This document shows, piece after piece, positions 12,499 through 63,583 of a stretch of 64,000 nt of DNA. The notes under the pieces were generated by a model. That model was not told the origin of the DNA. It saw nothing but the letters and a program-made list of their open reading frames with translations, and searched no databases. Numbering within the stretch: position 1 is the first letter of the stretch; each line of letters starts with the position of its first letter. This DNA is from a bacterium (GTDB lineage Bacteria > UBA8248): the NCBI GenBank assembly GCA_965203325.1, contig OZ241875.1, forward strand, positions 1,152,001 through 1,216,000, read 5' to 3'. A program made the translations under genes and the position numbers.

Positions 12499-13677
12499 CT
12501 ACTCGACGACCTCGGTGACGACGCCGGCCCCCACCGTGCGGCCCCCCTCGCGTATCGCGAAGCGTAGCTCGCGCTCCATCGCTATCGGCGTGATCAATTC
12601 CACGTCCAGCGACACGTTGTCCCCCGGCATCACCATCTCCCGGCCCTCGGGCAGCGTCACCAGACCCGTCACGTCCGTCGTACGGAAATAAAACTGCGGA
12701 CGGTAGCCGTTGAAAAACGGCGTGTGACGGCCGCCCTCTTCTTTCGTCAGGATGTACACCTCGCCCTTGAACTTCAGGTGCGGCTTGATCGACGCCGGCT
12801 CCGCCAGCACCTGGCCGCGCTCTATCTCGTCTTTCTTGACACCCCGGAGCAATACGCCCACGTTGTCGCCCGCCTGGCCCTGGTCCAGGAGCTTTCGGAA
12901 CATCTCAACGCCCGTCGCGACCGTCTTCCTCGTGTCCGTGATGCCCACGATCTCCACCTCATCCCCAACGTTCACGATGCCCCGCTCCACGCGGCCCGTC
13001 GCCACCGTACCCCGGCCGGATATCGAGAAAACGTCCTCCACCGGCATCAGGAACGGTTTGTCGACGTCGCGTACGGGTTCGGGGATGTAGCCGTCCACCG
13101 CCTCCATCAACTCGTCTATCGAGGAGGTGTCCGTACCCTCCAGGGCCCTCAGCGCAGAACCCGGAACCACCGGGATGTCGTCGCCCGGGAACTCGTAGGT
13201 CGAGAGAAGCTCGCGGACTTCCAGCTCCACCAGCTCCAGGAGCTCCTCGTCGTCCACCATGTCGACCTTGTTCAAGTACACGCAGATGTAGGGTACCCCC
13301 ACCTGGCGGGCCAGCAGGATGTGCTCGCGCGTCTGCGGCATCGGGCCGTCCGCCGCCGACACCACCAGTATGGCGCCGTCCATCTGCGCCGCACCCGTTA
13401 TCATGTTCTTCACGTAGTCCGCATGGCCCGGACAGTCCACGTGCGCGTAGTGGCGGTTCTCCGTCTCGTACTCCACGTGCGCCGTCGCTATCGTGATGCC
13501 GCGTTCGCGTTCTTCGGGCGCCTTGTCGATCTCGTCGAACCCGATCTCCTCCGCCATCCCCTTCTGCGAGAGGTGCCTCGTGATCGCGGCCGTCAACGTC
13601 GTCTTACCGTGGTCCACGTGACCTATCGTCCCCACGTTCACGTGCGGCTTCGTGCGCTCAAACTTCGCCTTCGCCAT
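12499..13677 (-). CDS. tuf: Elongation factor Tu (str-operon copy)
   Basis: [18 protein letters not shown]. Confidence 0.99.
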
Positions 13678-28699: not shown

Positions 28700-29878
28700 C
28701 TACTCGACGACCTCGGTGACGACGCCGGCCCCCACCGTGCGGCCCCCCTCGCGTATCGCGAAGCGTAGCTCGCGCTCCATCGCTATCGGCGTGATCAATT
28801 CCACGTCCAGCGACACGTTGTCCCCAGGCATTACCATCTCCCGCCCCTCGGGCAGCGTCACCAGACCCGTCACGTCCGTCGTACGGAAATAAAACTGCGG
28901 ACGGTAGCCGTTGAAAAATGGCGTGTGGCGACCGCCCTCTTCTTTCGTCAGGATGTACACCTCGCCCTTGAACTTCAGGTGCGGCTTGATCGACGCCGGC
29001 TCCGCCAGCACCTGGCCGCGCTCTATCTCGTCTTTCTTCACGCCCCGGAGCAGTACACCCACGTTATCGCCCGCCTGGCCCTGGTCCAGGAGCTTTCTGA
29101 ACATCTCCACACCCGTGGCGACGGTCTTCCTCGTGTCCGTGATGCCCACGATCTCCACCTCATCGCCCACGTTCACGATACCCCGCTCCACGCGGCCCGT
29201 CGCCACCGTACCCCGGCCGGATATCGAGAAAACGTCCTCCACCGGCATCAGGAACGGTTTATCCACGTCGCGGACGGGTTCGGGGATGTAGCCGTCCACC
29301 GCCTCCATCAAATCGTCTATCGAGGAGGTGTCCGTCCCCTCCAGGGCTCTCAGCGCAGAACCCGGCACCACCGGGATGTCGTCGCCCGGAAACTCGTAGG
29401 TCGAGAGAAGCTCGCGGACTTCCAGCTCCACCAGCTCCAGGAGCTCCTCGTCGTCCACCATGTCCACCTTGTTGAGATACACGCAGATGTAGGGCACCCC
29501 CACCTGGCGGGCCAGCAGGATGTGCTCGCGCGTCTGCGGCATCGGGCCGTCCGCCGCCGATACCACCAGTATCGCCCCGTCCATCTGCGCAGCGCCCGTT
29601 ATCATGTTCTTCACGTAGTCCGCATGGCCCGGACAGTCCACGTGCGCGTAGTGGCGGTTCTCCGTCTCGTACTCCACGTGCGCCGTCGCTATCGTGATAC
29701 CGCGTTCGCGCTCCTCGGGCGCCTTGTCGATCTCGTCGAACCCGATCTCCTCCGCCATCCCCTTCTGCGAGAGGTGCCTCGTGATCGCGGCCGTCAACGT
29801 CGTCTTCCCGTGGTCCACGTGACCTATCGTCCCCACGTTCACGTGCGGCTTCGTGCGCTCAAACTTCGCCTTCGCCAT
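28700..29878 (-). CDS. tuf: Elongation factor Tu (second copy)
   Basis: Protein matches the first copy except one E/D difference. Confidence 0.99.
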
Positions 29879-41100: not shown

Positions 41101-42009
41101 ATGAACCCCGAATCGAACGCCTACGGCGTGCTTCTGGCCTCGGTCGCCTCGGCCGCATGGGCGGTGTTCGTCTATTTCATCAAGCGCGCGCTCATGAACG
41201 CGCCCGTCCTCAAGGTCACCGCCGCCGTCACGAGCGTGAACGCCGCTCTCGTGACGCTCATCGCCATCGGCTTCATCTCGAAAAACGATTTTCAGGGCGT
41301 CACGACAGCCACTCTTGCGTTCGCCTTCCTGGCGGGTTTTTTCCACATCGGCATATCGCGCACCTTCTATTACCGCGCCATTCACCGCATCGGGCCGAAC
41401 CGCTCCATCCCCATCGCGCTGACGTATCCCGTCGTCACGGCGATCAGCGCGTCGTTCATGCTGGGAGAGACGCCGACGCTCTCCATCTTCACCGGCCTCG
41501 CGATCCTCCTCATCGGCATCACCCTCATCGTTCAGGCCGAACCATCCCGGGAGGCGGAAGCCGAAGCCCACGGCGCGAGGTGGAAGCTGTTCGGATGGTT
41601 TTCCGCCGGCGTCACCTCGCTGCTCTGGGGCGTGGCCGCGGTTTTCTTCAAAAAAGCGTCCCTGAATCTCCATCCGCTCGCCACCGCCGCGATAGCGATG
41701 TGGGTGGGGGCCGCCACGGCCATGCTTCTCATGGCGCTCGACAAGGGCGAGGAATCGCGCGGCCCCATCCCCGCCTCGGCCTGGAGGTGGATTTTCGCCG
41801 CAGCCGTCTGCCAGACGATCGCCGTTCCGTTCTATAACTTCGCGTTCGTCCACACGCTGGCCGTGCGCGTCACGGCCATCATCTCCGCCCAGCCGCTCAT
41901 CGTCCTGGTGCTGGGCTGGCTCTTCCTGCGCGAGATGGAAAACATCACGCCCCGGCTCGTCCTCGGCGCGCTCCTGACCGTGGCGGGCACCATCGTCGTC
42001 ATCACGTAA
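41101..42009 (+). CDS. DMT/EamA family transporter
   Basis: ~10 TM in two repeats; YYRAIHRIG, LFLRE. Confidence 0.88.
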   Translation: MNPESNAYGVLLASVASAAWAVFVYFIKRALMNAPVLKVTAAVTSVNAALVTLIAIGFISKNDFQGVTTATLAFAFLAGFFHIGISRTFYYRAIHRIGPNRSIPIALTYPVVTAISASFMLGETPTLSIFTGLAILLIGITLIVQAEPSREAEAEAHGARWKLFGWFSAGVTSLLWGVAAVFFKKASLNLHPLATAAIAMWVGAATAMLLMALDKGEESRGPIPASAWRWIFAAAVCQTIAVPFYNFAFVHTLAVRVTAIISAQPLIVLVLGWLFLREMENITPRLVLGALLTVAGTIVVIT

Positions 42010-42108
42010 AGCCGGCATAGAGTTCCCCTCGCCTCATGAGGGTGCTACCCTTGAACGCCTAATCATTCAGTGAATTTTTTGAAACCCTATTTCAACAAGG
42101 AGACCGAC

Positions 42109-42585
42109 ATGGGCGAAGTCATTCACGTCACCAAGGCCCGCATCGTCAAGGAACCCGGCAGGGGAATGAAAACGGGCTATCTCGACGCCTTCCCGGACGA
42201 GCCGATTCCCTACGGCATCCACGGGGGCATCAAGAACTTCTACAAGGCGGAACCCGAAGAAGAGCGGCCGGCCACGCTGGATCACCTGGCCGCCGCCGTC
42301 GCCGGCTGACTGACGGGCAACATGGGAGGCGCGCTGGATGCGCGCGGGATAAAGAGCAGCCCCGACAACCTGGTGGCGGAAGTGGAAGGCATCATCGAGA
42401 ACGTGGACGGCATGGCCCTGGTCACGAAGATCAAGGTCAATTACAAGTGCCGCATCCCCAGAGGAAAGCGAGAAGACGCCGAGCGCGCACTCGCCGTGCA
42501 CGAGAAGGGCTGCCCGGCGAGCCAGAGCGTGCAGCGGGGGATTCAGGTGGAGTATACGGCGGAGTTCGAGGAGGTGGACGAGTAG
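42109..42585 (+). CDS. OsmC/Ohr-like protein, probable selenoprotein (Sec67 from in-frame TGA 42307-42309)
   Basis: AAGGAG RBS; two ORFs in one frame separated by a single TGA: HLAAAVAG-U-LTG...KGCPASQS. Confidence 0.8.
42329..42345 (+). promoter_or_regulatory. Putative bacterial SECIS apical hairpin
   Basis: GCGCGC-TGGAT-GCGCGC; loop starts 26 nt after the UGA, G at loop position 2. Confidence 0.65.
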
Positions 42586-42608: not shown

Positions 42609-42680
42609 GCAGTGGCGGACCCATGTGTCCGCCCGCATCAAGGATGAAAGGCGCAGGGACAGGTCGCGACCTGTCCCTGC
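42609..42680. repeat. REP-like palindromes (GCAG variants)
   Basis: GCAGTGGCGGAC..GTCCGCC and GCAGGGACAGGTCGCGACCTGTCCCTGC. Confidence 0.75.
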
Positions 42681-42797
42681 CATTTTTTGCGCTTTCATTT
42701 CCCCCAGGAAACGCATAAATGTAGGCGCAAGCATTCCCCAAGGCAGGGTGTTTCTATAAAATTTTAACGAAAAAGCGATTGCTGGTTGAAGAACCGG

Positions 42798-43114: not shown

Positions 43115-43240
43115 GTAGGGACAGGCCCCCGTGCCTGTCCGTGGCCTCCGCGCCGGTTCGACAAAGGACAACCAAGGAGGGTTGTCCCTACGAATCAATA
43201 TCCGTTCGCCACGTAGGGACAGGTCGCGACCTGTCCCTGC
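43115..43240. repeat. GTAG-REP doublet plus REP palindrome
   Basis: GTAGGGACAGGC..GTTGTCCCTAC (43115-43191); GTAGGGACAGGTCGCGACCTGTCCCTGC (43213-43240). Confidence 0.8.
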
Positions 43241-45492: not shown

Positions 45493-46686
45493 TTAGCGGG
45501 CGACGAAGTTCCGGTGCACCCAGCGGTCGTTCCCGCGCCGGACTTCCATGTAGAACGACTCGCTCGCCTTGCGCGTCTCCAGGTTCAAGCCGCCCGGCAT
45601 CGCTCTCAAAGCGGGCTTCGCGGCGCGCGCGGAATCGATGAACGCGGCGACCTCGGCGAGTGTGGGCCGTATGCGTCTGTGCGCGCCTTTTTCGGCAATG
45701 GCCTCCGTCGCCGCCGCCTTGAGCTGCCGCTGCCACAGCTTGCGGAACAGGCCGGTGCTCTCGAATTCATCGCCGCTGTTGATCCGGCCGTTCACCGCGA
45801 AGACATAGCCCACGGCATCCGGATGCTTTGCCGACAGTCCACCCAGGGCTTTTTCATAGTCCGCCACGGCGGACGCGAGGCGCTTGTTCTCCAATGACAA
45901 CTGGAGGCTCGAACGCGAGCGTTCGTCGGCGACGCGCGCACGCACGGCCCGGCCCAACCCCTGCTGTGTCATCGCGACCGAGCGCCACACTTCGCCCTGA
46001 AGAGATGCGCCTCTTCGCCGCCGTATCCTCCCCAACCTTCCGCTCCAAACGGCTTCGGGAGCGGTCTCGCGCCCCATGCTTTTCATCATCGCAATCTTGC
46101 CGGCTCTCGAAGGCATGCGGTATGCGGAGGTCGAAAACGCCATCACATTCTCCAGGCCGCGCCTGGCCCACCTGCCCTGCTCCACGCAAAACGCGCCGAT
46201 GGGGATGTAGCCCGACTTCGGGGGGACGAGCAGGCTGGTGAGCAGGACACGGTCCTGCTTGCCTCCCTTGACGATGTCCCCCGACTGGATGAAGACCTCG
46301 CGATCGCCCAGGTTGCGGACCTTGAGGCGGCCGACGCTGCCGGTTTCGACGACCTTGACGAGGCCCCGCCTCATCGCCTCGCCCAGGGTGATCGGCGCGG
46401 GGCCTTCGCTTCGGCCTTCGCGGTGAATCAGATAGATGGAGAGATTGTTCTGCGTGTAGGGGCCGCTCAGGCGGTAGTCCTTCCCCGCTGTAGCATTGGC
46501 AGTCGCCGGCGGTAGCCCGATTGCGACCGCGCAGGCGAGGAGAACGGCGACGCCACACGCCCGGAACATTCTCGATGCAACCCGCGCCCTGCGGGCCGGA
46601 CGCCCTTCTAAAGATCTGATGTGCATGATTTTCCCTCCCCGATCGCTCAATCCCGGCAGCGCAATCTCTTCCATATCGCTCAACAA
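45493..46686 (-). CDS. Exported ARPP-1/DUF6569-like protein (start may be ~46569)
   Basis: Signal-like segment; L.V.N..VFIQSGDIVKGGKQDR, FCVEQGRW, QGEVW. Confidence 0.7.
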   Translation of the reverse strand: MLSDMEEIALPGLSDRGGKIMHIRSLEGRPARRARVASRMFRACGVAVLLACAVAIGLPPATANATAGKDYRLSGPYTQNNLSIYLIHREGRSEGPAPITLGEAMRRGLVKVVETGSVGRLKVRNLGDREVFIQSGDIVKGGKQDRVLLTSLLVPPKSGYIPIGAFCVEQGRWARRGLENVMAFSTSAYRMPSRAGKIAMMKSMGRETAPEAVWSGRLGRIRRRRGASLQGEVWRSVAMTQQGLGRAVRARVADERSRSSLQLSLENKRLASAVADYEKALGGLSAKHPDAVGYVFAVNGRINSGDEFESTGLFRKLWQRQLKAAATEAIAEKGAHRRIRPTLAEVAAFIDSARAAKPALRAMPGGLNLETRKASESFYMEVRRGNDRWVHRNFVAR

Positions 46687-46841: not shown

Positions 46842-46869
46842 GTAGGGACAGGTCGCGACCTGTCCCTAC
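46842..46869. repeat. GTAG-REP perfect palindrome
   Basis: GTAGGGACAGGTCGCGACCTGTCCCTAC. Confidence 0.85.
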
Positions 46870-47245: not shown

Positions 47246-49492
47246 CTAGCCCTGGCTTCCGTTCGTCTTGAGGCGTCCCAGCACCTCCAGGACGTGGTCC
47301 GGCGTGATGGGGATGCGCGTGAGGCGCGCGCCTATCGCCTGTCCCGCCGCGCAGGCCACCGCCGCGGCCGCCGCCGTGCAGGGGGGTTCGCCGATGCCCT
47401 TGGCCCCGTAGGGCCCCAGGCCCTCGCCGGATTCCAGGATGACGTTGTCCCATTCGGGCGTGTCCACCGAGGTGGGGATGAGGTAGCCGTGGAACTCGTT
47501 GTTCAGGAGCGCGCCCTTTTGCGTGAGGACCTCTTCGGTCAGGGCGTGGCCGACGCCCATCATCGCGCCGCCCTCGAACTGGCCTTCCACGTGCTGCACG
47601 TTGATGGACTGGCCCACGTCGTGGCCCGACCAGTAGTTGAGCACGCGGAGTTCGCCCGTATCGACGTTCACCTCGACTTCCGCCGCGTGGATGCCGAACA
47701 CGTAATCCATCCAGCCGCCCGCGTCGCCGTACTGCTCGTTACCCTCGTATTCGTGGACGCCGAGCTTCGTCTTGCCCACGGCGTGGAGGTCGATACCCAT
47801 CTTCCTTGACTGCGTCACGGCTTCGGCGAAGGAGACATCGCGCTCTTCGGCCGCTTTCACGTACACCCGGCCCTCGCGGATATCCAGGTCCTCAGGGTTC
47901 GCTTCGAGAAGTTCGGCGGCGCCCTTCAGAATTCTGTTCTTGAGTTCCGCCGACGCCCGGTAACACGCGCCGCCCGAGATCATCGTCTGGCGCGATCCTG
48001 CAGTGACCCCTACCAGCGGGGTGACGTGGGAGTCCGACATCGTCACCGTCACGTCCTCGAGCGCTATTCCTAAGGCTTCCGCCGCAATCTGGCGGTTCGT
48101 CTGTGTCTGGCCCGCGCCGACGTCCGAAGCGCCGGTGCGCACGCTCACGCTGCCGTCCTCATCAATGCCCACATAGACTTCGCCCTCGTTCCTCGGCCTT
48201 CCGTATCCGCCGACGTTCCCGATGATCCCGACGCCGACGCGCCAGGGGCCGTGGTCTTTTTCGGGGACGCGGCCCGCCGAGCGGCCGATGAGCTTTTTCG
48301 TTTCCTCCGCCAGTTCGGGCAGCATCACGCGCGTGGGCACGGGCTGATTCTGGATGAGGGTCTGGCCCTTCGCGATGAAGTTTCTCTCGCGGAACTCGAG
48401 CGGGTCCATCCCCAGCCGCTCCGCGAGTTCATCCATCTGCGCTTCGTAGGCGAAACACACCTGGTTCGCGCCCACGCCGCGCATCGCCTCGGTGAAGGGG
48501 TTGTTCGTCCGGACGGCGCGCGAGCGGCCCCGCGCGTTGGGTATCTCATAGGGTCCCGCGCTCACCACGAGCGCGCCCAGCAACAAACCCTTGCTGTTGG
48601 CCGTGTAGCCACCCGCATCGCCGATGATGTCGACTTCTATGGCGGTGAGTTTCCCGTCCTTCGTCGCGCCCGTCCTGTACTTCATGACGAAGGGATGCTT
48701 CTTGCTGCCAGTGTTCATGGTCTCCTCGCGCGAGTAGGCCATGCGCACGGGCCGCCCCGTCCGGATCGACAGGAGCGCCATGAAGGCGCCGAGCAGCGGG
48801 TGCTCCTTGCCCCCGAACGCTCCGCCCAGCATCGGGCAGTCATACCGCACGCGGCTGAGGGGGAGGCCCAGCGTCCGCGCCACGTTCTGGTAGTTCTCTA
48901 TCATCTGCGTGGGCACGCGGATGTTCACCACCCCCCGCTCGTCCACCCAGGCGACGCCGCCTTCGGGCTCGATGAAGGCGTGATCCAGACAGGCGGAGAA
49001 ATAGGTCTTCTCGACGATAACGTCCGCCCCGGCGAAGCCCGCCTCCACGTCGCCCTTGTCCGCCTTCCAGTCGCAGACCACCTCGCCCTCTTCGAGTGTG
49101 GCGAAGTCGTAAGCGCCCGGCAGCGGCTCGTAGACGACGCGCACGAGCGAGGCCGCCTCTTCAGCCAGGTCCCGCGTGTCGGCGGCCACGAGGGCGACCG
49201 CGTCGCCGATGTCGACCACGAGGTCTTCGGCCAGCACCGGGTAATCGGGATAGCGGCCCGCGTTCAGGCCGGGAATGTCCTTCGCCGTCAGGACGCAGTG
49301 CACGCCGGGCAGAGCGAGCGCTTCCGTCGCATCAATCTCCACGATCTTCGCCGGCGTCATCGTGGCGCGGACGGCTTTCCCGTAAATCTCGCCCGGCATG
49401 TGGAAGTCATCGCCGTAGACCGTGTCGCCGACCGCCTTCGCCAGGGCGTCTTCTTTCGTCGGCGACGCGCCGACATGCGTCATCTGAGCCAT
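47246..49492 (-). CDS. Xanthine dehydrogenase family molybdopterin-binding subunit
   Basis: GGAFGGK, AMRGVG, GPYGAKGIGEPP. Confidence 0.93.
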   Translation of the reverse strand: MAQMTHVGASPTKEDALAKAVGDTVYGDDFHMPGEIYGKAVRATMTPAKIVEIDATEALALPGVHCVLTAKDIPGLNAGRYPDYPVLAEDLVVDIGDAVALVAADTRDLAEEAASLVRVVYEPLPGAYDFATLEEGEVVCDWKADKGDVEAGFAGADVIVEKTYFSACLDHAFIEPEGGVAWVDERGVVNIRVPTQMIENYQNVARTLGLPLSRVRYDCPMLGGAFGGKEHPLLGAFMALLSIRTGRPVRMAYSREETMNTGSKKHPFVMKYRTGATKDGKLTAIEVDIIGDAGGYTANSKGLLLGALVVSAGPYEIPNARGRSRAVRTNNPFTEAMRGVGANQVCFAYEAQMDELAERLGMDPLEFRERNFIAKGQTLIQNQPVPTRVMLPELAEETKKLIGRSAGRVPEKDHGPWRVGVGIIGNVGGYGRPRNEGEVYVGIDEDGSVSVRTGASDVGAGQTQTNRQIAAEALGIALEDVTVTMSDSHVTPLVGVTAGSRQTMISGGACYRASAELKNRILKGAAELLEANPEDLDIREGRVYVKAAEERDVSFAEAVTQSRKMGIDLHAVGKTKLGVHEYEGNEQYGDAGGWMDYVFGIHAAEVEVNVDTGELRVLNYWSGHDVGQSINVQHVEGQFEGGAMMGVGHALTEEVLTQKGALLNNEFHGYLIPTSVDTPEWDNVILESGEGLGPYGAKGIGEPPCTAAAAAVACAAGQAIGARLTRIPITPDHVLEVLGRLKTNGSQG

Positions 49493-61169: not shown

Positions 61170-61634
61170 TTACTCGTAACCGATTCCGAGCGTCTGGCTC
61201 TCTTCCGTAAGCCGGTCCAGGGCTTTCAGGCGCGCCCGCTTGGTTCGCTCCTCGTAGGCCTTCAAGTCGTTGAACATAACGCGCCTGTGCGTCCCGACCA
61301 TTCGACAGGGTATCTCCCGGTTATCGAGAAGTTTGACGATGAATCCCCGCGATACGTTGAGCAAATCCGCAGCTTGCTGGGTCGTCAGTTCCGCGTTCAT
61401 GGGTATCAGCGATACGGCGTTGCCCTTGGACATCTCGTCCAGCAGTTCGATAAGCAGGCGAACCGCCGCAAAGGGCAATTCGATAACATCGCGTTCATCC
61501 TCGGCGAGCCGAATAGCCACTTTATCGGGACTATCCGCGAGTTTGTCCGCAAGCGCACGAGCAGACGCTTTCGCAATACTCGCCTCCCGGGAACTGGGAA
61601 ACGCCGATGGGAATTGCATTATCGTGCCTGTCAT
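61170..61634 (-). CDS. Excisionase-like HTH (HTH_17) DNA-binding protein
   Basis: ELTTQQAADLLNVSR..LL..EIP..VGTHRRV. Confidence 0.88.
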   Translation of the reverse strand: MTGTIMQFPSAFPSSREASIAKASARALADKLADSPDKVAIRLAEDERDVIELPFAAVRLLIELLDEMSKGNAVSLIPMNAELTTQQAADLLNVSRGFIVKLLDNREIPCRMVGTHRRVMFNDLKAYEERTKRARLKALDRLTEESQTLGIGYE

Positions 61635-61863
61635 ATTCAATCTCCCCTTCAGCCTCGGATTCTCGACACATCGTCAATGTAAATCATATTCGATATAAAT
61701 GCAATAATCGATATAAACGACGTGACTCCGGTTTCAGTGGCTCTTGCCTGGCGAGCGAGCTTAGGCTGGAGGCAGGGGCAATTGCCATCTCGCACGACAT
61801 CACGAAGAAACGCCGGAGGTGGGGACTAGCAGGTCGGGGGTTATTTACGTTTCGCCCAGGCGA

Positions 61864-63318
61864 TCATACGGCGATCATCTTCTGCTCTTTCAACTTGGCG
61901 AGCAGTTCCTCCATGGTTCCCGCGCCCTTCATGGAATTGCAGGCGCCGCAGAGTAGCTGAAGGTTTTCTATGTGATCCTGCCCGCCTCTCGCCTGCGGCA
62001 CGATATGGTCAATGGTGAAGTTCCTGAACGGGAAATGAACCTTGCAGCCATTGCACCGCCCTTCCTGTAGCCCATAGAGCGTGTGCTTGTGGGTTTTGTA
62101 AATCGGGAAGTCAACAATATCGGTTCGCCTGGGGATGTCCGTGCGGTGGTTTACATTTCCGAAAAGACCCAGCTCTTTAGTCATGCGAAGTTGAACCAAA
62201 TCCACCGCTTTGGGCGATATGTCTATCCCCACCCATTCACGGACGTTTTTCTCCGCCGCGATGAGCGCTGTAGCGCACCCACAGAATGGGTCCAGTATAG
62301 TATCTTCCGGGTTCGATGACGCTTTGATGATGCGCTCCAAAAGCGCAAGTGGTTTTTGCGTGGGATAGCCCAAGCGCTCTTTCCCTATGACTGGCGCAAT
62401 ATCGTTCCAATTGTTTTGTATGGGTACGCCGGGCATTTCATCCAAGTATCGCTTGTAGTTAGGAAATCCTGTTTTCGCATGATAAATTCGACCTTCGCGT
62501 GCGATTTTTCGCATATTGTCTTGAGAATATGCCCAAAATCTTCCCTTATACGGTGGCACTCCCTTGTACTCCCAATTCTCTTTCGGGTTTATATGCTCGT
62601 TATCCAGATCAGCTTCCCATTTTCCTCCTATCGGACGTTTAACTCTCCATTCATAGCTCACGTCTCCACCCGGTTTCGCGGCCGTCAAGTTGTCGACGCG
62701 GTATCGTCTACCGGTACTTTCCTCTATATGGCGATAAAATTGATTTGTATAACTTTCGTCGTACCCAGTGAATACCTGATTCCATTTCCATTTTTTACCC
62801 TTGGTATAGAAGAGGATGACATCTCTTATTTTTCCATGGATCCGGCGCCCTTGTTTCCCGTCATTGTGTGCGCTGGAACGCTTCCAGCTAATCTCAGAGC
62901 GATAATTCTTTGCCCCGAAAATCGCGTCCATGACGAGCTTGAGATAATGGCTCATCGTGGGGTCGCAGTGGAGATAGATTGAACCCGTGGATTTCAGGAT
63001 GCGCCTCATCTCAAGAAGGCGGATCGCCATGTAGATGATGTAGGCCCGATCCGATTTCGTCATGGTGGCGTCGATGACTTTGTAGAGTTCCGGGTTTTCC
63101 TCCGCGATGAGGCCGTGCCACTCCACCGCGATGTCGCTGAGCGTCCACGTATCCTTGAACTCCGCGCCTGCCGCCTCGCTTCCTATCGGCGCGGCGTAAT
63201 TGTGTTTGCTGTTGAATGGCGGGTCGAGATAGATGAGGTCGACGGATTCTGAGTTCATGCCGCGCATGATGTCGAGGTTGTCCCCCGTCCACATCGTGCG
63301 GTTCTTCCAGTTGGTCAT
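61864..63318 (-). CDS. Beta-class N6/N4 DNA methyltransferase fused to a C-terminal HNH domain
   Basis: DLIYLDPPF ... YPTQKP ... LDPFCGCAT; CNGC..IDHIVP..GG..NLQLLCGACN. Confidence 0.9.
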   Translation of the reverse strand: MTNWKNRTMWTGDNLDIMRGMNSESVDLIYLDPPFNSKHNYAAPIGSEAAGAEFKDTWTLSDIAVEWHGLIAEENPELYKVIDATMTKSDRAYIIYMAIRLLEMRRILKSTGSIYLHCDPTMSHYLKLVMDAIFGAKNYRSEISWKRSSAHNDGKQGRRIHGKIRDVILFYTKGKKWKWNQVFTGYDESYTNQFYRHIEESTGRRYRVDNLTAAKPGGDVSYEWRVKRPIGGKWEADLDNEHINPKENWEYKGVPPYKGRFWAYSQDNMRKIAREGRIYHAKTGFPNYKRYLDEMPGVPIQNNWNDIAPVIGKERLGYPTQKPLALLERIIKASSNPEDTILDPFCGCATALIAAEKNVREWVGIDISPKAVDLVQLRMTKELGLFGNVNHRTDIPRRTDIVDFPIYKTHKHTLYGLQEGRCNGCKVHFPFRNFTIDHIVPQARGGQDHIENLQLLCGACNSMKGAGTMEELLAKLKEQKMIAV

Positions 63319-63475
63319 ACCAAGCCTCGTGGAACCCACGTCGTCATGGGCCGTTGGTATTGGGTCGCAATGTCTGGATATTGCTTTCGCCACGTATGGG
63401 CTGTCAAGGCCGCTGAGGGCTTCGCCGCCTGCCCGCTCCAAGCGAGGCTCGGCCGTTCCTGCACTTGAAAAGTGC

Positions 63476-63583
63476 GGGCGGACACGCGGGTCCGCCCCTA
63501 CAGGTTCAAAACCTCGAGCAACCCCTTCCTCATCGGCCGGAATTGATCTCACGACCCGTCATTCCGGCGCATGCCGGAATCCA
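63476..63583. repeat. REP half-site and GTCATTCCGG-type palindrome
   Basis: GGGCGGACACGCGGGTCCGCCCCTAC; CGTCATTCCGGCGCATGCCGGAATCC. Confidence 0.65.

Follow-up and report, generated by a model that had tools for sequence, protein, structure and literature searches.

Within the 64,000-nucleotide stretch of bacterial DNA analysed here (contig OZ241875.1, positions 1,152,001 to 1,216,000; hereafter the window), nucleotides 42109-42585 very probably make up one gene, encoding a 158-residue protein of the OsmC/Ohr superfamily in which the UGA at codon 67 is decoded as selenocysteine (Sec). The in-frame UGA is conserved and under selection, and it occupies the position of the first conserved redox Cys of OsmC proteins. 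Just 3' of it lies a stem-loop that fits the model of the bacterial selenocysteine insertion sequence (SECIS; bSECIS for the bacterial form) and that is constrained at synonymous sites.

Open reading frame (ORF) prediction divides the gene into two plus-strand ORFs in one frame, the first of 79 amino acids (42070-42309, with a GTG start) and the second of 87 amino acids (42322-42585), separated by one TGA only, at 42307-42309. An earlier inspection of the letters alone (the sequence-only reading) had noticed this split and proposed a hidden selenoprotein of the OsmC family; both ORFs and the TGA were found as it had described them. Translation from ATG 42109 with TGA read as U reproduced its 158-residue product, which runs ...ATLDHLAAAVAG-U67-LTGNMGGALDARG..., with LTG as the first residues after U67 and with ...HEKGCPASQS... 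further on, the source of the KGCPASQS it had remarked on. The features on which the argument depends are the following.

42109..42585, plus strand: single coding sequence for a predicted OsmC-family selenoprotein of 158 amino acids, from ATG to TAG with one in-frame TGA
42097..42102, plus strand: Shine-Dalgarno-like AAGGAG, 6 nt 5' of ATG 42109, identified by sequence inspection
42307..42309, plus strand: in-frame TGA, codon 67, predicted to encode Sec where OsmC proteins have their first conserved (peroxidatic-type) Cys
42329..42345, plus strand: SECIS-like hairpin inside the coding sequence, with GCGCGC at 42329-42334, the loop UGGAU at 42335-42339 and GCGCGC at 42340-42345
42511..42513, plus strand: TGC codon for Cys135 of the GCP motif, predicted resolving cysteine

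Relatives of the gene were collected from one genome per species; of the 256 loci that encode one, the 80 best were retained and examined. All 80 carry a TGA, never TAA or TAG, at the same column and in frame with both halves of the gene, in the context AVAG/AVGG-TGA-[L/M]TG, and in 78 of the 80 an ATG stands exactly 66 or 64 codons 5' of it. These loci come from metagenome-assembled genomes (MAGs) labelled Nitrospinota/Nitrospinaceae, Tectomicrobia, Rokuibacteriota, Methylomirabilota/NC10, Acidobacteria (three), Armatimonadota (one) or plain "bacterium", with protein identity to the window protein ranging from 99 down to 56%. Both halves of the gene are under purifying selection: across ten pairs, the ratio of nonsynonymous to synonymous substitution rates (dN/dS) ranged over 0.07-0.39 on the N-terminal side of the TGA and 0.08-0.62 on the C-terminal side, below 1 in every comparison. 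TGA is also the stop codon of 15 of the 49 confident genes of the window and, because it serves there as an ordinary stop, UGA has not been reassigned genome-wide.

The sequence GCGCGC-TGGAT-GCGCGC, which the sequence-only reading had singled out as a SECIS-like hairpin, is present, with its loop starting at the 26th nucleotide after the UGA and a G at loop position 2. As given in the Fig. 2 legend of PMC13188914, the bSECIS model calls for a loop of 3-9 nt, a stem of 4-16 bp and a G within the first two loop positions, at a spacing of 16-37 nt and with an energy no higher than -7.5 kcal/mol. From the TGA onward, 66 nt align without gaps across 81 sequences, the window plus the 80 loci, and these fall into two groups. 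Group A consists of the window, L001-L041, L059, L067 and L075 (45 sequences, 38 of them distinct); group B has 36 sequences (34 distinct), mostly from Methylomirabilota and Rokuibacteriota. Set beside the model, their hairpins have these values:

Group A: loop of 5 nt, stem of 6 bp, G at loop position 2, spacing of 25 nt, energy of -11.4 kcal/mol
Group B: loop of 6 nt, stem of 6-7 bp, loop G present, spacing of 17 nt, energy of -8.0 to -8.8 kcal/mol

Every value for both groups lies within the published limits, and the earlier description of the hairpin as SECIS-like holds. In group A the hairpin occupies alignment columns 23-28 and 34-39, its stem starting at the 20th nucleotide after the UGA, and all of its 228 cells (38 distinct sequences) are paired; the sole variation in pairing is a change of the outer pair from G-C to G-U, in eight sequences. 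The group B hairpin has 7 bp, CGCU[A/G]GC-CG[G/U]GGC-GCU[A/G]GCG, in columns 14-20 and 27-33, with its stem starting at the 11th nucleotide after the UGA and its loop at the 18th, and is paired in 97.5% of 238 cells (34 distinct sequences). By our reading, its loop fits the legend's pattern N1-G-[G/U]-N-N2-N, with C as N1 and G as N2, two bases that can pair. The SECIS thus appears to have shifted by 9 nt within one conserved peptide-coding stretch (columns 14-39, window 42320-42345).

Among 42 distinct group A genes, only three of 67 scored four-fold sites show zero entropy, and these three, in codons 75 (GCG), 76 (CTG) and 78 (GCG), are all inside the hairpin. At codon 79 the only alternatives are C and T, either of which keeps a pair (G-C or G-U), and the remaining Ala codons of the group A gene mostly end in C. 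All 35 group B genes use GCG for codon 75, and 34 of the 35 use ACG for codon 71. The rare codon CTA encodes Leu72 in 19 of these genes and Leu76 in 23; both positions lie in the stem, where the A of each pairs with the U of the other, and CTA never occurs at Leu57 or Leu88. We take this constraint on synonymous sites in the hairpin as a sign of selection on the RNA, in an element that is conserved and not covarying. A SECIS-type hairpin as good as the natural one arose in 116 of 5000 synonymous recodings of the window peptide, and in 49, 137 and 315 of 5000 for L022, L020 and L036, respectively. The alignment also contains an invariant GCGCU in columns 25-29, which forms the 5' arm and first loop base in group A and the loop end and 3' arm in group B.

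The read-through protein scores 47.5 bits against the Pfam OsmC model PF02566 (gathering cut-off 27.5) over residues 53-149. An AlphaFold model, made from a 69-sequence family alignment, has a mean predicted local distance difference test score (pLDDT) of 96.8 and a predicted template modelling score (pTM) of 0.89. When this model was compared with known structures by Foldseek, 63 matches were obtained at E <=0.001, the best being 1ukk (E 3.2e-10), followed by 1nye and 1qwi; 2onf gave a template modelling (TM) score of 0.77. All 29 chains listed by Foldseek are OsmC, Ohr, or OsmC-like/putative-redox structural-genomics proteins. From the model, the window protein is confidently predicted to fold as a member of the OsmC/Ohr superfamily, as had been proposed from the sequence. 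The proposal of a first Cys position followed by a second, CP-type motif likewise stands: in sequence alignments, position 67 is matched by the Cys of "AAHAGC" in 1ukk and of "AAHAAC" in 1qwi, and Cys135 by the Cys of their "GCPVS". The first of these OsmC cysteines, the one aligned with position 67, is the one we take to be peroxidatic. The N-terminal 50 residues of the window protein show no sequence alignment to 1ukk or 1qwi.

The family alignment consists of the window protein, 24 Sec forms and 44 Cys forms; since fragments and non-Cys forms were left out, the invariance of column 67 in it is by construction. Near-invariant elsewhere among its 69 members are G36, D58, G70, L76, H131, C135 and S140. 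Against more specific models the window protein falls below the curated cut-offs, with 28 bits against 85.8 for OsmC peroxiredoxin (TIGR03562), 20 bits against 88.85 for Ohr (TIGR03561), and 18.4 bits against 95 for NF041052, named "OsmC-related (seleno)protein". A scan of the 69 family members with NF041052 matched 45 of them at E <=0.01, the best E-value being 9.7e-08, and no better family was found for these aligned members.

Protein databases hold this family mostly in pieces. A word-based protein search returned 338 matches, 120 of which were listed. Among those listed, 113 are pieces of 86-93 amino acids that start right after the TGA (MTG... or MGG...), two are N-terminal pieces ending in ...AVAG, one is a partial sequence of 110 amino acids, and four are full length; two of the four, P0023 and P0032, read AVAG-C-LTG. 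The read-through (Sec) form is absent from the 120 matches listed, in keeping with the forecast of the sequence-only reading that automated annotation would miss the gene. A broader homologue set (n=154) was assembled from 148 representatives of 50%-identity clusters, found by exhaustive search, and six sequences from the word-based search. It divides as follows.

Spanning column 67: 77
Ending at or before residue 66: 28
Starting at or after residue 68: 35
Other fragments: 14

In the 77 spanning representatives, the residue at column 67 is C in 60, G in four, R in four, S in four, W in two, D in one and A in one, with a gap in one; one of the 60 Cys homologues, P0002, is aligned through a frameshifted stretch. 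Cys or Sec had been predicted for this position in OsmC homologues, with a non-Cys column named as the result that would speak against the proposal, and the column proves to be mostly Cys. Six homologues (P0003, P0126, P0167, P0185, P0207 and P0245) have G or W exactly at the Sec column, as in AVAG-G-MTG; these may be products of gene callers that translated TGA under genetic codes 25 or 4, as opposed to real Gly or Trp.

Support for Sec decoding at the level of lineages is indirect and comes through shared labels. Table 2 of the BSepDB paper (PMC13326102) places three Nitrospinota/Nitrospinaceae/Nitrospinae genomes (GTDB UBA8248) in its top ten for selenoprotein genes, with 48-54 each. The passage on SelA and SelB in PMC5649159 has the two co-occurring in most sponge-symbiont bins, and PMC13188914 cites a prediction of 63 selenoprotein genes for one Methylomirabilota MAG. 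One of the related loci, L022 from Rokuibacteriota, has next to its OsmC-type gene a peroxiredoxin-like (Prx-like; AhpC/TSA) gene, L022:8500-9342 on the minus strand, with an in-frame TGA in "...FYRGRW-U-PYCNAEL...". That gene is divergent from a TetR gene, and its frame stays open until a second TGA about 135 codons on, which is probably the true stop. Because it shows the UxxC pattern, a second selenoprotein is suggested in L022. A crude screen of the window for in-frame TGA codons flanked on both sides by coding-like third-position GC content (GC3) yielded 28 sites, and by eye only 42307 stands in a real gene frame; the remaining sites, judged by eye and not one by one, belong to frames that run antisense to known genes or shadow them.

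A number of observations weigh against the selenoprotein interpretation. For group B, the best SECIS-type hairpin is equalled by 24-38% of recodings. The minimum free energy of the region is no better than that of dinucleotide shuffles (z = +0.6), and 1977 of 3000 synonymous recodings of the window peptide fold at least as well. Neither the group A nor the group B hairpin shows any compensatory (two-sided) change, and the hairpin is placed differently in the two groups. No Rfam family covers the hairpin region, a search of 42250-42450 at relaxed threshold giving only chance-level matches with E >3. The TGA is clearly more than a chance feature; for the hairpin, on which the evidence is mixed, this holds in part. 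At the protein level, column 67 is something other than Cys in 17 of the 77 spanning homologues, and a peroxidase function is inferred by analogy only, for a protein that scores too low for either the OsmC or the Ohr peroxiredoxin model. As for the decoding machinery, no match to selA, selB or selD was found among 59 ORFs of the window scanned, which were chosen for high GC3 out of 190 ORFs of >=100 amino acids. ARAGORN and Rfam found no tRNA-Sec in the window, only five ordinary tRNAs, and ARAGORN found none in the 80 loci. Searching the 80 loci by tblastn with the EF-Tu of the window, as a means to SelB candidates, gave three matches, which NCBIfam models identify as EF-G (L048, L077) and IF-2 (L077).

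Among the alternatives, the one that survives best, itself improbable, is that UGA is read through in a programmed or leaky fashion but not as Sec, with a near-cognate tRNA inserting Cys or Trp, or else that UGA acts as a regulatory pause; the hairpin would then stimulate read-through instead of binding SelB. Such a scheme would agree with the failure to find Sec machinery in the window ORFs scanned or in the 80 loci, and the W in 2 of 77 and G in 4 of 77 homologues at column 67 could reflect other decodings or other gene-calling codes. The combination of a Cys/UGA pair at a redox Cys with a bSECIS-type hairpin, however, is a recognised signature of bacterial selenoproteins, and the second gene in L022 shows the known UxxC pattern of Prx-like selenoproteins. 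Lineages bearing these labels are, moreover, reported to be very rich in selenoproteins in PMC13326102 and PMC13188914.

Still less probable is a genuinely split gene, in which termination and re-initiation at the UGA would give an N-terminal polypeptide of 66 amino acids and a C-terminal one of 87-90, assembling into an OsmC-like protein that lacks the first Cys. In group B an ATG directly follows the TGA in every sequence (TGAATGAC, 36 of 36), which resembles stop-start coupling, and gene callers do report the C-terminal piece as an ORF, as in the 113 of 120 matches listed. In group A, though, the next codon is mostly CTG or CTC, the downstream ATG at codon 72 is missing in L031 (ACC CTG), and no AGGAG-type ribosome-binding motif is visible 5' of ATG 42322. 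The break, moreover, is always one codon, always TGA and always at the conserved-Cys column of the Cys forms, where it would remove the catalytic residue. Finally, a lone TGA in an intact OsmC gene resembles a nonsense mutation when seen in one genome, but a pseudogene, or a sequencing or assembly error turning TGC or TGT into TGA (the latter a risk the earlier inspection had raised), is excluded because the same TGA is kept in 80 of 80 independent assemblies under several phylum labels, with dN/dS below 1 on both sides of it and constrained synonymous sites in the hairpin.

Under the interpretation of 42109-42585 as a selenoprotein gene, SelB carrying Sec-tRNA(Sec) would bind GCGCGC-UGGAU-GCGCGC while the ribosome is at the UGA, resulting in insertion of Sec at codon 67. 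By analogy with OsmC/Ohr enzymes, the Sec67 selenolate would attack a hydroperoxide or similar oxidant, becoming a selenenic acid; Cys135 of the GCP motif would resolve this to a selenenylsulfide, and a cellular thiol reductant would then regenerate the enzyme.

The gene does not represent a new kind of selenoprotein: the kind has been known since 2005, when OsmC-like selenoproteins were published from the Sargasso Sea by Zhang, Fomenko and Gladyshev (PMC1088965), whose account of them gives three sequences in COG1765 with a UxxT motif and a predicted SECIS. Passages on the family in the Global Ocean Sampling (GOS) study (PMC2398784) and in the reviews PMC9312934 and PMC13188914 describe it again, under COG1765/YhfA or PF02566 and with the motif UxxT. 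By these published descriptions, the earlier proteins resemble the window protein in belonging to the OsmC superfamily and in having an in-frame UGA, Cys homologues and a SECIS stem-loop directly 3' of the UGA. They differ in the motif, which is UxxT in the published family as described, U-L-T-G in the window protein and U-M-T-G-T in group B.

The comparison extends to the selenium-free enzymes and to an unrelated family of selenoproteins. The OsmC peroxiredoxins 1ukk (Thermus thermophilus) and 1qwi/1nye (Escherichia coli) match the window protein with Foldseek E-values of 3e-10 to 6e-09 and TM scores (query) of 0.66-0.70, and at the two redox positions U67 stands opposite their first Cys and C135 opposite the Cys of GCP. 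In contrast to them, the window protein has a predicted Sec in place of Cys, its identity to them is 18-24%, and its family has its own near-invariant D58 and H131. Ohr proteins (2bjo, 6ebg, 1n2f) share the superfamily fold and two Cys some 64-68 residues apart, although identity is only 12-16%. Prx-like (UxxC) selenoproteins are, like the predicted enzyme, of a thiol/selenol peroxidase type and occur in the same environmental lineages, one of them (WUPYC) being the neighbour of the OsmC-type gene in L022; they have, however, the unrelated thioredoxin-like AhpC/TSA fold, and their Sec and Cys sit in one short motif instead of 68 residues apart.

The family to which the window protein belongs has a recognisable signature: about 155 amino acids with HGG...TLDH...AVAG-U-[L/M]TG...H-x3-C-P, including near-invariant Asp58 and His131. 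This signature is not described in the OsmC passages of PMC1088965, PMC2398784, PMC9312934 or PMC13188914, and "OsmC" is not named in the main text of the BSepDB paper (PMC13326102) or in the part of its Table S1 covered here. We assume that NF041052 is the model of the family published in 2005, as is probable. Since the window protein and its relatives lie far below the NF041052 cut-off and read U-[L/M]-T-G and not UxxT, their family is probably a separate subfamily, as yet unmodelled. More tentatively, and with the balance somewhat against it, these sequences could constitute a second, uncatalogued subfamily of OsmC-superfamily selenoproteins, with its own signature, a predominant Sec form and a SECIS shifted by 9 nt, recorded in databases as fragments of 87-90 amino acids. 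In such a subfamily the Sec form may predominate in environmental genomes of Nitrospinota-like bacteria, Tectomicrobia, Rokuibacteriota/Methylomirabilota and some Acidobacteria, as it does in 80 of the 80 best species-level loci.

Two further features flank the gene.

41101..42009, plus strand: EamA/drug-metabolite transporter (DMT) gene (Pfam EamA, 1.5e-32), upstream, with a 100-nt gap to the OsmC-type gene
42653..42689, plus strand: terminator-like stem-loop of 12 bp with a T run behind it, 68 nt beyond the stop codon

The gene order methyltransferase-EamA-OsmC is seen only in Nitrospinota-type loci (the window, L021, L033 and L037) and in none of nine loci examined from other lineages. It is possible that the EamA gene is an operon partner of the OsmC-type gene, in the Nitrospinota-type lineage only. 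Neighbours in the nine loci of other lineages include TetR plus Prx-like, NifU-like, ADP-ribosylglycohydrolase, ThiC/RtcB, an extracytoplasmic function (ECF) sigma factor or a zf-HC2 anti-sigma factor, and AcrB; those suggestive of redox stress are TetR plus Prx-like (L022), the zf-HC2 anti-sigma factor (L071) and the ECF sigma factor (L078). With neighbours so inconsistent across lineages, a conserved neighbourhood was rejected as a clue to function.

Past the 3' end of the gene, a 22-nt palindrome, GGGACAGGTCGCGACCTGTCCC, is the first of three exact copies in the window (42656-42677, 43216-43237 and 46845-46866), where 0.01 would be expected by chance. All three copies are apparently intergenic, and the first forms the core of the terminator-like stem 3' of the OsmC-type gene. 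The palindrome looks like a repeated element of the repetitive extragenic palindromic (REP) type or a shared terminator.

The window as a whole contains a region of ribosomal protein genes, rpoBC and tuf, together with, among others, cysS, ispDF and moaC. The tuf (EF-Tu) gene occurs in two near-identical copies, each encoding 392 amino acids, both on the minus strand, at 12499-13677 and 28700-29878; one follows fusA in the str operon, and the other lies beside a tRNA-Thr/Gly/Tyr/Thr cluster, upstream of tRNA-Trp and nusG. Such a layout with two tuf genes is the usual bacterial arrangement. At 45493-46686 on the minus strand is a gene for a 397-residue protein with an ARPP-1 domain (ARG and Rhodanese-Phosphatase-superfamily-associated protein; 1.1e-56) and no NCBIfam name, situated between a sodium:solute symporter gene and a gene for a molybdopterin subunit of the xanthine dehydrogenase family (47246-49492). 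Further along, an excisionase-family DNA-binding protein (61170-61640, minus strand) adjoins a 562-residue adenine-specific DNA methyltransferase (61864-63552, minus strand), whose C-terminal 60-70 residues weakly match the HNH region of IscB and Cas9d models. The segment 61170-63552 could mark the border of a mobile element or represent a restriction-modification module.

In public records the OsmC-type gene appears in truncated form, labelled "OsmC family" or "hypothetical" (such fragments make up 113 of the 120 best matches), and because it is recorded in this way, proteomes lose the catalytic residue along with half of the protein. The finding leaves the understanding of Sec decoding and of OsmC proteins unchanged and will not surprise a specialist; its use is in annotation. 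For curation, the 80 orthologues, in which the SECIS has two alternative placements, make a clean training case. The lineages affected are reported to be among those with the largest bacterial selenoproteomes, to which recognition of the gene adds one family. For enzymology, the family offers a natural Sec/Cys pair with which to ask what benefit selenium brings to an OsmC-type enzyme.

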